64,000 nucleotides of DNA from a virus (IMGVR_UViG_3300028283_000231); one strand, 5' to 3'; numbered from the stretch's first letter, positions 8,874-61,700 are shown. Numbers and translations are program-made. Notes: generated by a model from the letters alone, not told the origin.

Positions 8874-9053
8874 TTATTGAAGATTAACATTACCACCAAG
8901 GGTTTCGATACCTTTTAATATCGCATCCAATTTAGCATCCATCGATTTCAATTTGGATTTAACCTCACATAACATACCATATTCACCACTACCTTCATTT
9001 AGAACTTCATCGTCATATAACATTTCAGTAAATGTTTTTACTTTTTCTTCCAT
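8874..9053 (-). CDS. Small protein with CTS-like N-terminus (59 aa)
   Basis: MEEKVKTFTEMLYDDEVLNEGSG... Confidence 0.6.
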   Translation of the reverse strand: MEEKVKTFTEMLYDDEVLNEGSGEYGMLCEVKSKLKSMDAKLDAILKGIETLGGNVNLQ

Positions 9054-9059
9054 TTAATT

Positions 9060-9176
9060 TTAATAATTTTTTTGATAATGTTGCTTTTCACCGTAAGCTG
9101 GGCATTTAGTTGAAGCACAAGATGCTACTAAAAATGATACCGCTATAATTAATATTAAAATAATTTTCTTTTTCAT
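9060..9176 (-). CDS. 38-aa lipoprotein
   Basis: MKKKIILILIIAVSFLVASCASTKCPAYGEKQHYQKNY; lipobox VAS-C; TAATG coupling with the upstream gene. Confidence 0.7.
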   Translation of the reverse strand: MKKKIILILIIAVSFLVASCASTKCPAYGEKQHYQKNY

Positions 9177-9517
9177 TATTCTCTCTCTTTAGTTATGTGA
9201 ATCATACCTGGATAACCAGCGTCTTTTGAAGATGACCAAGCGTCTTTAAATTTCTTGTACTCTTCGTATTTTTGAAAAAATTCTTCATCAGTTAACTTCT
9301 TATATATTTGAGCGTTTTTTAAGATAGACGCCCAACCAAAATTGGTCATGTATTTTAAATCAACTCCACATTCTTCTAAAAAATCATCTACTGTGAGTTC
9401 AGATCCTTCGGGTAATGTTCTTAGTTTATATTCTAGTTCCATAGGAATATCAACTTCTACACCATTTTCTTTGGTTTCTTTAATGTAGTCTTTTAATTTT
9501 GTTTTTAAGTTTTTCAT
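9176..9517 (-). CDS. Hypothetical protein, CTS-like N-terminus
   Basis: MKNLKTKLKDYIKE. Confidence 0.7.
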   Translation of the reverse strand: MKNLKTKLKDYIKETKENGVEVDIPMELEYKLRTLPEGSELTVDDFLEECGVDLKYMTNFGWASILKNAQIYKKLTDEEFFQKYEEYKKFKDAWSSSKDAGYPGMIHITKERE

Positions 9518-10203
9518 TTTCCAACGTAATTTTTTAGTTTATCATACATGTCTGTTAATTTATCACTGTGGAGTTTTTTACTTTCGTGCCATAGTTCGTC
9601 AAATGTAATAAATAGATTATAAGTTTCCTTATCAAGAATCATACCTTTATCAAACTTCTTATTATTACTTTTCCATAACTCATCTGGTGATAAAGCGGCT
9701 TCACCTTTTGGTACTATGAATCCACCAAATTCTTTACCAACTGAATAAGTTTTCCAAATTATTAATTCTTTATCTTTACCGTAAACGTAGTATGTTTTAT
9801 GATCGTCTCCAATATCCCAATATATTCTACCGTTAATATTTTGTACCTTTTTACTTCCTTTGCCTTTAGATGTTAAGAAAGGAACACCAGGTATAAGAGT
9901 GTCTTTATCCAATCTGATAGGAATTCCAAAATTATCTAATTCGTGGTCACCAGTGACTTTATTCCTCTTGTAAACAGGTTTATCGAGACTTAGTTCACCT
10001 TTTTTAGCGTCATTAAAAATTTCTACTTCTTGTTTAGTAAGAGAGTTCTGTCCGTATTTTCTAATCTTATCTATGTAGTAGTTGATGATTTTATCAGAAG
10101 TAGCAGTTCTTTCATCAGTATCATATGCTTCGTAAAAATCATATACACCTTCATTTATAGGTTTAACTTCTTCCTTAACAACTTTATTTCTTTTCTTTCT
10201 CAT
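9514..10203 (-). CDS. Hypothetical protein, paralog of 10208..10894
   Basis: Shared blocks PG..F.T.KGK, FG.F, P..LW, FD.GM.LD; N-terminal IDKIRKYGQNSLTKQEVEIF resembles the DUF6576-type helix. Confidence 0.75.
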   Translation of the reverse strand: MRKKRNKVVKEEVKPINEGVYDFYEAYDTDERTATSDKIINYYIDKIRKYGQNSLTKQEVEIFNDAKKGELSLDKPVYKRNKVTGDHELDNFGIPIRLDKDTLIPGVPFLTSKGKGSKKVQNINGRIYWDIGDDHKTYYVYGKDKELIIWKTYSVGKEFGGFIVPKGEAALSPDELWKSNNKKFDKGMILDKETYNLFITFDELWHESKKLHSDKLTDMYDKLKNYVGK

Positions 10204-10207
10204 ATTT

Positions 10208-59261: not shown

Positions 59262-59264
59262 TAT

Positions 59265-60035
59265 ATGTTAGAACTTAATAAAATATACTGTGGTGATACC
59301 ATAGAGTACATGAAGAAAATAGAAGATAAATCTATTCAATTAGTAGTTACGTCGCCACCATACTCAAGAGGACAAAGAACAGACGGATTAAATAATATTT
59401 ACGAAAAAGCTGATACAAATTATAAAGACAACTTATCTGATGAAAAATATATTGAATGGATGACTAACGTGTTTAAAGAATACGAAAGAATTCTTAAAGA
59501 TACTGGTGTAGTGGCTTTTAATTTAAGTTATACAAAATATTCTCCTTCTTTACCTTATTACGTTATACATAGTATATTTGAAAATACTAACTTCGTTATC
59601 GCTGATACAGTTGCTTGGGAAAAGAGTAGTGCTATTCCTATATCTGGACATCCAAATAGATTAACTAGAAAAGCTGAATTTGTTTATATCTTTGTTAAGA
59701 AGGATTATTTGAACACTTTTGATGCTAATAAAGAAGTATCTTCTGTGAGTAGAACAGGACAAAAATTCTATAAAACATATTATAATATATTAAAGGCTAA
59801 GAACAATGACGGAAAAGTAGAAGGACACGGTGCAACTTATTCAAGTGACTTTGCCAAGTTCTTTATTGATCTTTATTCTTTTCCAGATTCAATTGTTCTT
59901 GATAATTTTATGGGTACAGGCACCACCGGTTTGGCATGTAAGATGTTAGGTAGAAATTATATAGGAATAGAATTAAGTGAAAATTATTGTGAAATCGCTA
60001 AAACAAGAATTAAGAATTATGAACAATCAAGATGA
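59265..60035 (+). CDS. N4-C/N6-A DNA methyltransferase, beta class
   Basis: TSPPY catalytic motif N-terminal; VLDNFMGTGTT SAM motif C-terminal. Confidence 0.9.
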   Translation: MLELNKIYCGDTIEYMKKIEDKSIQLVVTSPPYSRGQRTDGLNNIYEKADTNYKDNLSDEKYIEWMTNVFKEYERILKDTGVVAFNLSYTKYSPSLPYYVIHSIFENTNFVIADTVAWEKSSAIPISGHPNRLTRKAEFVYIFVKKDYLNTFDANKEVSSVSRTGQKFYKTYYNILKAKNNDGKVEGHGATYSSDFAKFFIDLYSFPDSIVLDNFMGTGTTGLACKMLGRNYIGIELSENYCEIAKTRIKNYEQSR

Positions 60036-60228
60036 AAGATTATTAAAGTGTGACGATAAAGGGAATGTTATTGGTTTCGCTTTAAAGGATATAAGAAGAA
60101 ATGAAATTGAGGACATAACTACTAGAATAAGAAAAGCCTCAACATTAGAAGAGGCTATGTCCTTATTAGAAAATTACACAGATAATTACGCTAAACTTTA
60201 TAGAGCTGGTAATTTCACTAGATATTAA
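60019..60228 (+). CDS. Hypothetical protein
   Basis: MNNQDERLL..., 69 aa. Confidence 0.6.
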   Translation: MNNQDERLLKCDDKGNVIGFALKDIRRNEIEDITTRIRKASTLEEAMSLLENYTDNYAKLYRAGNFTRY

Positions 60229-61241
60229 ATTTCGTTTAAAAGATCTTCTTTATTAATTGGAACTACGCCTACTTTTTCACAAACTAATCCGCCTGCTATG
60301 TTTGATACTCTAGCTGTGATTATTTTATCTACTCCATTTATAGTCAATAAAGTAGCAACTGATATAACTGTATCACCTGCTCCTGATACGTCAGCCACGC
60401 TTCTCTTTTCACCTTCTATGTGATGATGTGTTATCTTATCTTTATCTTTAAATGAAAGAAGAATTCCTCTATTACCCATAGTGGTATAGAAGGTATCTAT
60501 TTCTTTTTCTTTTATAAGTTTTTCAACGTGTGGCATTATTTCTTCCCATTTATCTATATCGAGACTCTCTTCTTTTAGACCTCTTTTTAGTTCGTTAAAA
60601 TTTGGTTTAAAGATTGTTACATTTTTATAATGATCAAAGTTTTTTAATTTTGGATCAACAAATAGAGGTATATTTCTTCTCTTTGATAACTCAATTATAT
60701 ATTCGATCATCTTTTTAGATATAACACCTTTATCGTAATCTTGAAAAATTATGGCGTCTATTTTATTTTCAGCTACAGCGATGATAACGTTTTCCTTTAA
60801 TCTTTCATATATTTCATCATTAAGTTCCTCTTTAGATTCTTCGTCTATTCTAATCATTTGAGTATTGTTTCCAATCACTCTAATTTTATTAGTTGTTTTT
60901 CTAGTATCAGTTGCTTTTATGTATTTGGTTTCCATTCCACTATTTTTAATAGTAGCTTTAAGTTCCCAACCGTGTTGATCAGCACCTATAACAGAACAAA
61001 TGATAGGAGTAGAGAGGGGAGGAGAAGAGGAGAAGGGGAAGGCACCTAGTTCTTTTATATTTAAAGCAACGTTGGCTGCTCCACCCAGTTTATCTATTTT
61101 ATCGTGAATATCTACAACAGGGACAGGGGCTTCGGGGGAAATGCGTTCTACTTTACCGATGAGATATGTATCTAGCATTATATCACCGATTAGTAGTATT
61201 TTATTGTTTTTAAAGTTCTCAAAAATATTTTTCCAATTCAT
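60225..61241 (-). CDS. rfaE1: D-glycero-D-manno-heptose 7-phosphate kinase (HldE/RfaE kinase domain only)
   Basis: GDIMLDTY..G.VERISPEAPVPV; GGAANVA; DYDKG; VDPK; DVSGAGDTVI. Confidence 0.9.
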   Translation of the reverse strand: MNWKNIFENFKNNKILLIGDIMLDTYLIGKVERISPEAPVPVVDIHDKIDKLGGAANVALNIKELGAFPFSSSPPLSTPIICSVIGADQHGWELKATIKNSGMETKYIKATDTRKTTNKIRVIGNNTQMIRIDEESKEELNDEIYERLKENVIIAVAENKIDAIIFQDYDKGVISKKMIEYIIELSKRRNIPLFVDPKLKNFDHYKNVTIFKPNFNELKRGLKEESLDIDKWEEIMPHVEKLIKEKEIDTFYTTMGNRGILLSFKDKDKITHHHIEGEKRSVADVSGAGDTVISVATLLTINGVDKIITARVSNIAGGLVCEKVGVVPINKEDLLNEI

Positions 61242-61337
61242 TTTTGTGTTATTGTTTTTTTAATTATATTTGCATTCTGTGTTATAGTTTTTGATTTTTT
61301 AGATTTAATATATAAAGAAAAATTCTAATTACACAGA

Positions 61338-61700
61338 ATGACTAAAAAGTTTGAAGATTTCTTATTTACTGATAAATATCCAGAAGCTAAGGTTTTAAAA
61401 TTTTCTGAATATAGAAAAGGATCTTCTGAGTACGGACAATTGTTTCAAGATCTTATGATGGTACTCAGAATGAAAAGAGAAGAGAATAAGGATTCTGAAA
61501 CTATAATATTAACAAGTGATGATATAAAAGGATTAGATAGTGATAAACTATTTAATTTGTTATCTGATAAGAAGAAGATGAGAAAACTTGGTATGAGTTT
61601 TGATGTTGAAACGACTAATGACGGTATAATATTTTCAAATTTAGGAAATAAAGAATCAAGACCTTGGGAGAATAAGGAAACTCTTGACGAAAAAGCGTAA
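61338..61700 (+). CDS. Hypothetical protein, CTS-like
   Basis: MTKKFEDFL...KVLKFSEY; late promoter at 61305. Confidence 0.7.
   Translation: MTKKFEDFLFTDKYPEAKVLKFSEYRKGSSEYGQLFQDLMMVLRMKREENKDSETIILTSDDIKGLDSDKLFNLLSDKKKMRKLGMSFDVETTNDGIIFSNLGNKESRPWENKETLDEKA

Follow-up and report, generated by a model that had tools for sequence, protein, structure and literature searches.

A T4-like N-terminal leader on many unrelated proteins of a huge phage clade as a candidate head-targeting tag

In bacteriophage T4 the proteins IPI, IPII, IPIII and Alt carry a capsid-targeting sequence (CTS), a short N-terminal tag that is removed by the protease gp21 (PMC3012670, PMC5694885). For the T4 internal proteins this tag is portable and sits on rapidly changing cargo genes (PMC3012670). 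The phiKZ-like giant phages (phiKZ, 201phi2-1, SPN3US) use a gp21-related protease to process several of their head proteins, in SPN3US 8 of about 50, at a motif that ends in Glu. In addition they encode a protease paralogue that has diverged, and N-termini remain conserved among paralogues that are otherwise diverged (PMC5694885). Most of their propeptides exceed 100 residues, and they carry the motif (S/A/G)-x-E, with about 50 head proteins determined by mass spectrometry (PMC5694885). The CTS of T4 and the propeptides of giant phages are both well established (PMC3012670, PMC5694885); no paper linking capsid-targeting tags to huge phages was found in the literature. Here we characterize a short N-terminal leader that is shared by many open reading frames (ORFs) on a viral DNA stretch of 64,000 nucleotides (nt), IMGVR_UViG_3300028283_000231, which as a whole is called the window in the following. 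An initial annotation of the window had interpreted this leader as a cleavable, T4-CTS-like head-targeting sequence on many unrelated late proteins that are packaged and delivered with the DNA.

The leader resembles the T4 CTS in several respects. In both systems a tag of 10-14 residues is found at the N-terminus of otherwise unrelated proteins. It follows the nearly identical pattern M-K-x-[FY]-x-x-F-I-x-E (MKTYQEFIAE in T4, MKNFTRFINE in the window) and its end reads (L/I)-x-E, with a small residue in the next position. The protease belongs to the same family (phrog_207), and the tagged genes turn over fast while the tag stays. In contrast to the three internal proteins read from the T4 record, about 130 tagged genes, i.e. 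13% of the genome, are found here, the leader occurs in two length variants, and the P2 position is occupied by Asn or Lys rather than by Ala. Further differences from T4 are that the tag unit is repeated 12-14 times in a protease-scaffold fusion, that a second motif, D-P-Y-G-E-E-x-W (DPYGEExW), accompanies the leader and that multi-domain enzymes are among the carriers. Compared to the phiKZ-like phages, this clade has a far larger number of tags, which are short and of the T4 kind; unlike in either of these systems, they are known from gene sequences alone. Overall, we regard the leader system as a strongly enlarged version of the one in T4.

The window has a G+C content of about 30% and yielded about 100 ORFs by simple greedy calling. 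Genome-wide statistics were taken from LR756501.1 (735,411 bp, an unannotated "uncultured phage" with 988 ORFs), a close relative of the window phage that is 91% identical to the window over long stretches. The counterpart of the window lies at roughly 207-276 kb of this genome, with one inversion, and the standard genetic code fits LR756501.1. A single outgroup, 150 kb of Lak-A1 (MK250015.1), served as contrast. For the motif statistics the residues were permuted inside each N-terminus, such that the composition was kept.

The leader in the window and genome-wide

All 14 N-termini quoted in the initial annotation were recovered in the window with identical starts and strands, that of ORF 13720-14589 with a GTG start codon. 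The motif [FYW]xx[FYW]([ILVM]x)E was present within the first 16 residues of 12 window ORFs, compared to 2.0 ± 1.4 after shuffling (maximum 7 in 2000 shuffles). A looser form was observed 16 times, compared to 4.1 ± 1.9 (maximum 11). The 16 leader-scoring ORFs start at positions 7522, 10894, 11814, 12185, 12900, 13727, 14589, 15726, 16580, 22969, 40367, 42297, 42932, 43792, 47133 and 57752. With one weaker case that lacks the Glu (61338) and three looser ones (9053, 9517, 10203), the previously given number of about 18 ORFs is a fair one. AT-rich composition alone is an unlikely explanation of the motif, since the shuffled N-termini keep the composition and the motif lies far above chance.

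Throughout LR756501.1 the leader follows the consensus M-[ILV]-[KT]-[KN]-[FY]-x-x-[FY]-([ILV]-[NK])-E. Of the 988 ORFs, 51 have the strict form [FY]xx[FY][ILVM][NKDQ]E within their first 16 residues, compared to 0.8 ± 0.9 after shuffling. When considering only the starts of the longest ORFs, 45 strict motifs were obtained, compared to 1.6 for windows at internal Met residues and 0.24 for random windows. About 130 genes score as leader-bearing. The information content of the leader is high through the Glu and at background level straight after it. The Glu is followed by a small residue in the proposed form of the tag, and Ala, Ser or Gly occupies this position in 42% of the cases (background 18%). 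The long variant, which ends with [ILVM]-[NK]-E, is present in 60 genes, and the short variant, aromatic-x-x-aromatic-E, in 45, with Leu, Ile or Val at P3 in 25 of these 45 (56%). The ends of the long variant and the P3 position of the short one fit the T4 rule (L/I)-x-E.

The synonymous codons of the leader mirror the genome usage, and Phe/Tyr as well as Ile/Leu/Val swap freely. Since the codons follow the genome usage and the conservation stops at the Glu, selection on the leader acts at the protein level. A DNA-level origin of the leader was considered as well and was rejected on the basis of the codon usage and the shuffles. In the 150 kb of Lak-A1 no leader enrichment was found (3 motifs compared to 2 expected). 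Because Lak-A1, which we take to be more AT-rich than the phage studied here, lacks the enrichment, AT-richness by itself seems an unlikely source of the motif.

One explanation for a shared N-terminus is that the carriers form one expanded paralogous family, with the motif being its conserved N-terminal domain. Several window carriers are indeed paralogous: 10942, 12169, 12888 and 13720 and, weakly so, 11811, which makes five genes between 10942 and 14589, and furthermore 10208 is a paralogue of 9514. The description of the carriers as unrelated ORFs has thus to be restricted, with about 11 independent families remaining in the window. In LR756501.1 the 132 leader proteins were clustered after removal of their first 16 residues. 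This provided 85 body clusters, mainly singletons, with 26 and 14 members in the two biggest. The cluster of 26 is probably linked in part by the short DPYGEExW motif. Together with the unrelated Pfam folds among the carriers and the end of conservation at the Glu, this largely refutes a single-family origin, which we consider highly improbable.

The leader is associated with a class of promoters. The top over-represented upstream word of LR756501.1 is T[TA]ATATATA, which is found within 80 nt upstream of 42% of the leader genes and of 17% of the other genes. When counting operons, units led by this element hold 89% of the leader genes (69 of the 70 strong ones) compared to 45% of the others (odds ratio 10, p = 5e-24). 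Since the element also precedes the portal and the protease-scaffold genes, this class is presumably expressed late. Structural proteins behind the element carry no leader. For the window most carriers had been placed behind a late-type promoter. For 10 of 17 leader genes, T[TA]ATATATA lies no more than 60 nt ahead of the start. ORF 43792 has a one-base variant instead, and the other six come directly after such a gene on the same strand, with no gap in between. A second over-represented upstream word of LR756501.1, AAAAAATAA(A/T), directly precedes many start codons and may be a translation-initiation signal.

Comparing the window to LR756501.1 revealed natural exchanges of the leader. The protein of ORF 15726 is 97% identical to its LR756501.1 orthologue from residue 16 onward, while neither the leader nor any of the upstream DNA can be aligned. 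Even so, the promoter element is present in both copies, and their leaders belong to one class. The protein of ORF 42297 corresponds to the last 202 residues of a 362-aa (amino acid) LR756501.1 protein. In the alignment, the 42297 leader F-D-S-F-L-N-E is placed opposite W-E-S-L-I-N-E, an internal segment of the longer protein located immediately behind DPYGEEVW. From these alignments the 15726 pair is read as a leader swap and 42297 as a fission or fusion partner. The leader genes 22969 and 61338 are not present in LR756501.1. By analogy to the T4 internal proteins, the leader behaves as a portable tag on fast-changing cargo genes.

The joint exchange of promoter and leader in 15726 could also be read as a by-product of nucleotide constraints, i.e. 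of AT-rich codons after the start or of a cassette of promoter and 5' end that is spread by recombination. The preferred residues Ile, Lys, Asn, Phe, Tyr and Glu are all encoded by AT-rich codons, as such an origin would predict. However, shuffling within the N-termini abolishes the motif (51 compared to 0.8), the synonymous codons follow genome usage and the exchanged 15726 leaders share no DNA similarity. Also the leaderless structural genes behind the same promoter and the missing enrichment in Lak-A1 disagree with it, such that this origin appears very remote.

The head module and the scaffold repeats

The head module lies outside the window and was read in LR756501.1 and 27 IMG/VR relatives. 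In LR756501.1 the portal gene (phrog_213, E = 2e-66) is followed by the gene for an 807-aa protease-scaffold (73913-76336) and a capsid protein of the Gp23 family (82.9 bits). The first 250 residues of the protease-scaffold match phrog_207, "head maturation protease" (E = 1e-27), into which T4 gp21 also falls (8e-76). With the Pfam family S77 the protease domain scores 24 bits, which is below the cut-off of 27 bits, and a PDB sequence search with this domain returned no match. In our alignment the protease of the clade conserves the residues that correspond to H85 and S140 of T4 gp21, presumably the catalytic pair.

After the protease domain, 12 exact repeats of 14 residues were found, each containing Y-x-E-Y-I-A-E. 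The repeat region covers residues 319-486 with the form I-x-Y-x-E-Y-I-A-E-x-[LV], and the 27 IMG/VR relatives retain the repeats, the most distant at about 55% identity. The repeat unit has the aromatic-x-x-aromatic-[ILV]-x-E pattern of the leader and is nearly the Y-Q-E-F-I-A-E of T4. An AlphaFold2 model of the repeat stretch provided one helix of about 240 residues at a mean pLDDT (predicted local distance difference test) of 80. Inside proteins, the core pattern has 67 matches in the LR756501.1 proteome, 24 of which fall into three tandem-repeat proteins: 14 into the protease-scaffold, 3 into a 207-aa scaffold-like paralogue (619760-620383, plus strand) and 7 into a 1691-aa protein (21458-26533, minus strand). 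The 207-aa paralogue has three scaffold-type 14-residue repeats and the C-terminal sequence DPYGEEDWSV, and the 1691-aa protein has seven FVKY[IL]IE units spaced by about 58-61 residues.

Fusions of protease and scaffold are known from lambda C/Nu3, P2 gpO and herpesvirus UL26. As in these proteins, an N-terminal maturation protease is joined here to a long helical scaffold that is encoded beside the capsid gene and is probably cut up. We know of no protease-scaffold fusion with a regular 14-residue array that bears a cargo tag and a cut site in every unit.

The capsid protein has an invariant [MLI]-N-E-N about 43 residues into its propeptide, in relatives down to 47% identity. This [MLI]-N-E site agrees with the same cut rule. 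As T4 control we used AF158101, in which IPII and IPIII start with MKTYQEFIAE/A and the scaffold protein gp22 with MLKEQLIAE/A (the slash marks the position after the Glu). Lak-A1 has a homologous protease without the aromatic repeats, which carries an acidic low-complexity region instead, and shows no enrichment of the aromatic leader. Since the IMG/VR loci at 55-60% protease identity were too short for judging covariation, Lak-A1 provides the sole contrast.

A 74-aa ORF in the window (7202-7426, minus strand), conserved in LR756501.1, starts with MITLNQNGMGRIVAPG, which repeats the stretch of the capsid protein located behind its predicted [MLI]-N-E maturation site. This ORF could be a miniature paralogue of the N-arm of the capsid protein. 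Three genes beside the Lak head protease (MK250015.1, 183-194 kb) start with MNKNIK/MIKEINK-x-L-[LM]-E-[SY]-[LI] and may represent a different, non-aromatic leader class.

These findings led us to the following model, to which we assign a probability of roughly 60%: the leader is a T4-type head-targeting tag that docks on the scaffold by mimicry of its repeat and is removed by the protease. As a short amphipathic helix it would copy one unit of the 14-residue scaffold repeat. Late in infection it would dock the tagged protein on the scaffold core, with the capsid shell forming around this core. The gp21-family prohead protease would then cut after the leader Glu, as it would do in the scaffold repeats and, in the capsid protein, at the [MLI]-N-E site. 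Leader and scaffold peptides would exit, the cargo would remain in the head with the DNA, and part of it would probably enter the cell along with the DNA. The clade would in this way probably pack more than 100 different proteins into its capsid. Protease, repeats, [MLI]-N-E site, promoter class and leader swaps thus agree with the initial annotation, while binding to the scaffold, cleavage, packaging, delivery and injection are what we infer from them.

The leader ends in the likely cut motif of the protease, which may indicate a pure processing signal. In this case the protease would activate or time proteins in the cytoplasm or in proheads without their retention in the capsid, or the carriers would be degraded core fillers like T4 gp67 and gp68. 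Many carriers look like ordinary enzymes, and a second, free-standing protease-fold paralogue exists, which would be compatible with such a role. This paralogue, L017 (178 aa, LR756501.1 11314-11850, minus strand; phrog_207, E = 3e-19), ends with DPYGEENWSE. However, it lacks the residues aligned to H85 and S140 of T4 gp21, having GELGYPD and FRPR there, and is therefore probably an inactive pseudo-protease. It resembles the diverged protease paralogue that was reported for SPN3US. Furthermore, the match to the scaffold repeat points to co-assembly beyond cutting, and the same kind of tag suffices for packaging in T4 (PMC5694885). Processing alone is thus a rather unlikely role.

The leader could also be a docking helix for another late structure or hub, such as a factor of tail or baseplate assembly, a chaperone or a compartment for replication or assembly. 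This would be in line with a short amphipathic motif that is confined to one promoter class and is often paired with DPYGEExW, which resembles a ligand of a hub protein. However, two of the three tandem-repeat proteins carrying the unit are the head protease-scaffold and its scaffold-like paralogue, the 1691-aa protein being the third. The leader also ends with a T4-type cut motif, and no candidate for an alternative receptor was found. We consider a different docking partner unlikely.

Several points weigh against the head-targeting model. The evidence is computational throughout, with the head module taken from the 91% identical relative and the 27 IMG/VR relatives, and the covariation test is based on one outgroup. 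The likeness between scaffold and leader is one of pattern and not of sequence identity, with Ala at P2 in the scaffold compared to Asn or Lys in the leaders, and a profile from the scaffold repeats alone recovered 8 leaders (0.3 expected, score >= 6). A minority of the leaders, e.g. 12185 and 61338, have no Glu. The late timing is indirect, and 45% of the non-leader genes are also in units of this promoter class. Moreover, about 13% of the genes would be head cargo, far above any studied phage, and the carriers include enzymes atypical for virions, such as PPK2, radical SAM and a tRNA nucleotidyltransferase fusion.

Carriers of the leader and the DPYGEExW motif

Most leader carriers of LR756501.1 have no Pfam or PHROG match, and the few matched ones are enzymes: PPK2, DeoC, a 1233-aa fusion of deaminase, CCA-adding tRNA-nucleotidyltransferase and HD domain, a methyltransferase, GNAT and radical SAM. 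In all three cases in which the Pfam domain was located (PPK2, DeoC and the deaminase/CCA-adding fusion) the leader is N-terminal to it. In the tagged PPK2 the leader and a 165-aa extension precede the domain. Another PPK2 gene of the genome did not turn up as a leader match. Pfam matched no family for any of the window leader proteins, and PHROGs returned no known virion or internal-protein family for 106 leader proteins. The family scans of the carriers also turned up no known anti-defence family, with homology to IPI not having been searched for. Regarding the enzyme and binder labels given previously, a HAD-like fold for 15726 and an LRR-like fold for the 10942 family are supported by structural matches (Atlas) at the level of a lead, while the label "NDT-like" found no support. 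Concerning the label HExxH protease, ORF 42297 has the sequence HELDH and a weak zincin-like resemblance.

The second motif, DPYGEExW, has 105 copies in about 90 LR756501.1 proteins, compared to 0.27 expected. It is found in 30% of the leader proteins and in 5.8% of the others (odds ratio 6.9, p = 2e-14). Frequently it is located near the C-terminus: in 38 cases the protein ends at most 4 residues past the Trp, in 26 of them exactly 2. Other copies are located between domains or, with window ORF 22969 as an example, immediately behind the leader. Its codons are skewed, with CCT and TAC being over-used. Close relatives possess the motif, and neither T4 nor the Lak-A1 region does. In the literature "DPYGEE" appeared only in unrelated papers, and no description of the motif was found. 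Since the inactive protease paralogue and the small scaffold-like paralogue both end in it, the motif is tied to the head. As a guess, it could be a second address tag or a hub-binding motif. We also considered internal DPYGEExW copies as polyprotein junctions before an [ILV]-[NK]-E cut site. This idea was dropped because only a weak excess was found (15% compared to 7%).

Short, portable peptides also address cargo into the HK97-fold shell of encapsulins, where they bind the shell and stay uncut. Phage polyvalent proteins are large, multi-domain proteins that are delivered with the DNA (PMC7824862). Neither shares sequence likeness with the system described here. They serve as analogies only, chiefly for the C-terminal DPYGEExW. 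A further-reaching interpretation would be a two-tag system, in which leader and DPYGEExW together load at least 150 proteins, about 1/6 of the proteome, into the capsid of the largest known phages, such that an injected starter proteome would be readable from sequence. DPYGEExW would then be a tail or linker tag that is also found on the inactive protease paralogue and the mini-scaffold, and the cargo would include nucleotide and tRNA enzymes. We regard this interpretation as tentative and rather doubtful.

The leader-bearing ORFs are spread over both strands of the window. On the minus strand, the 289-aa paralogue with the GTG start (13720-14589; leader MIKTFQLYE/T, promoter element 14609-14617) heads an operon that extends from 14589 to 10942. 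It is followed by the 279-aa paralogue 12888-13727 (MIKEYKQFE/I), for which the start 13727 was taken rather than the longer-ORF start 13739, by the 243-aa paralogue 12169-12900 with a TTG start (MVMVTNFIKYNE/S) and by the 124-aa ORF 11811-12185, a weak leader starting with MIKKFESYKS that has the aromatic pair and no Glu. The operon ends with the 290-aa LRR-like paralogue 10942-11814 (MIKKFKLYE/S), for which the Atlas structural matches begin at residue 21 or later (best 21-290). Further along this strand are the 228-aa ORF 10208-10894 (MDKIVKSYRSFINE/G; promoter element 10917-10925) and its 229-aa paralogue 9514-10203, which has a basic N-terminus and a PINE/G site without the aromatic pair. 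The 113-aa ORF 9176-9517 starts with the loose variant MKNLKTKLKDYIKE/T, in which Leu replaces the first aromatic residue, and is not in LR756501.1. The 59-aa ORF 8874-9053 has the loose variant MEEKVKTFTEML...VLNE/G, a possible leader outside the regular expression used. Also on the minus strand are the 356-aa ORF 46063-47133 (MIELNYNDFLNE/D; promoter element 47181-47189) and the 143-aa ORF 57321-57752 with the short leader MPIKNYEKFE/K (promoter element 57774-57782), which is new compared to the initial annotation. A DPYGEEIW motif (45875-45898, minus strand) forms residues 56-63 of the leaderless 275-aa ORF 45236-46063.

On the plus strand, the 58-aa ORF 7522-7698, with a TTG start, the leader variant ...NNKKFVEFLE/F and a T[TA]ATATATA element at 7502-7510, is conserved in LR756501.1. 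The 285-aa HAD-like protein 15726-16583 (MIKLFEDFE/R; promoter element 15693-15701) is followed by the 330-aa ORF 16580-17572, whose leader MKNFTRFINE/N is the closest of all to the T4 tag. The 222-aa ORFan 22969-23637 (promoter element 22955-22963) has the leader MIKVFEQFNE/N and directly thereafter DPYGEENW (23002-23025). A homologue search with it found no counterpart in LR756501.1 and a single database relative, which keeps both leader and DPYGEExW. The 51-aa ORF 40367-40522 (MNTEFENFINE/S; promoter element 40353-40361) is a remnant, its LR756501.1 counterpart being a 468-aa gene. The 208-aa HELDH protein 42297-42923 (MENLVPFDSFLNE/K; promoter element 42280-42288) precedes the 262-aa ORF 42932-43720 (MMLNYMQYIKE/M) and the 281-aa ORF 43792-44637 (MSLKGYKKFNE/A), which has the one-base promoter variant CAATATATA within 43757-43770. 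Finally, the 120-aa ORF 61338-61700 (promoter element 61306-61314), which is not in LR756501.1, starts with MTKKFEDFLFTD and is a weak leader with the aromatic pair and the Glu missing at its usual place.

Two further features of the window were recorded. A TnpB/IS605 OrfB-like gene at 26727-27989 (minus strand), with OrfB_IS605, Cas12f1-like TNB and HTH domains, is missing from LR756501.1 and is therefore probably a recent insertion. The ORFs 14679-15587 and 20634-21530 (both minus strand) form a pair of paralogues with 35% identity. The former matches DUF7487 (Pfam), being the only copy of the pair that was scanned, and LR756501.1 holds one homologue of the pair, 27-34% identical.

Implications for huge phages

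Should the tag function as it does in T4, the proteins that uncultured huge phages package, and possibly inject, could be predicted from their genomes. In the 735-kb phage this would concern about 130 genes, mostly without a function so far, and would provide a role for a large share of its "dark" genes. The carriers would then be candidates for early host takeover and anti-defence, and cargo would be recruited by copying the scaffold repeat. Tag and repeat are testable in vitro without the host, and the tag may serve for loading proteins into capsids. With DPYGEExW a second short linear motif would be added that had not been described before and calls for a receptor.

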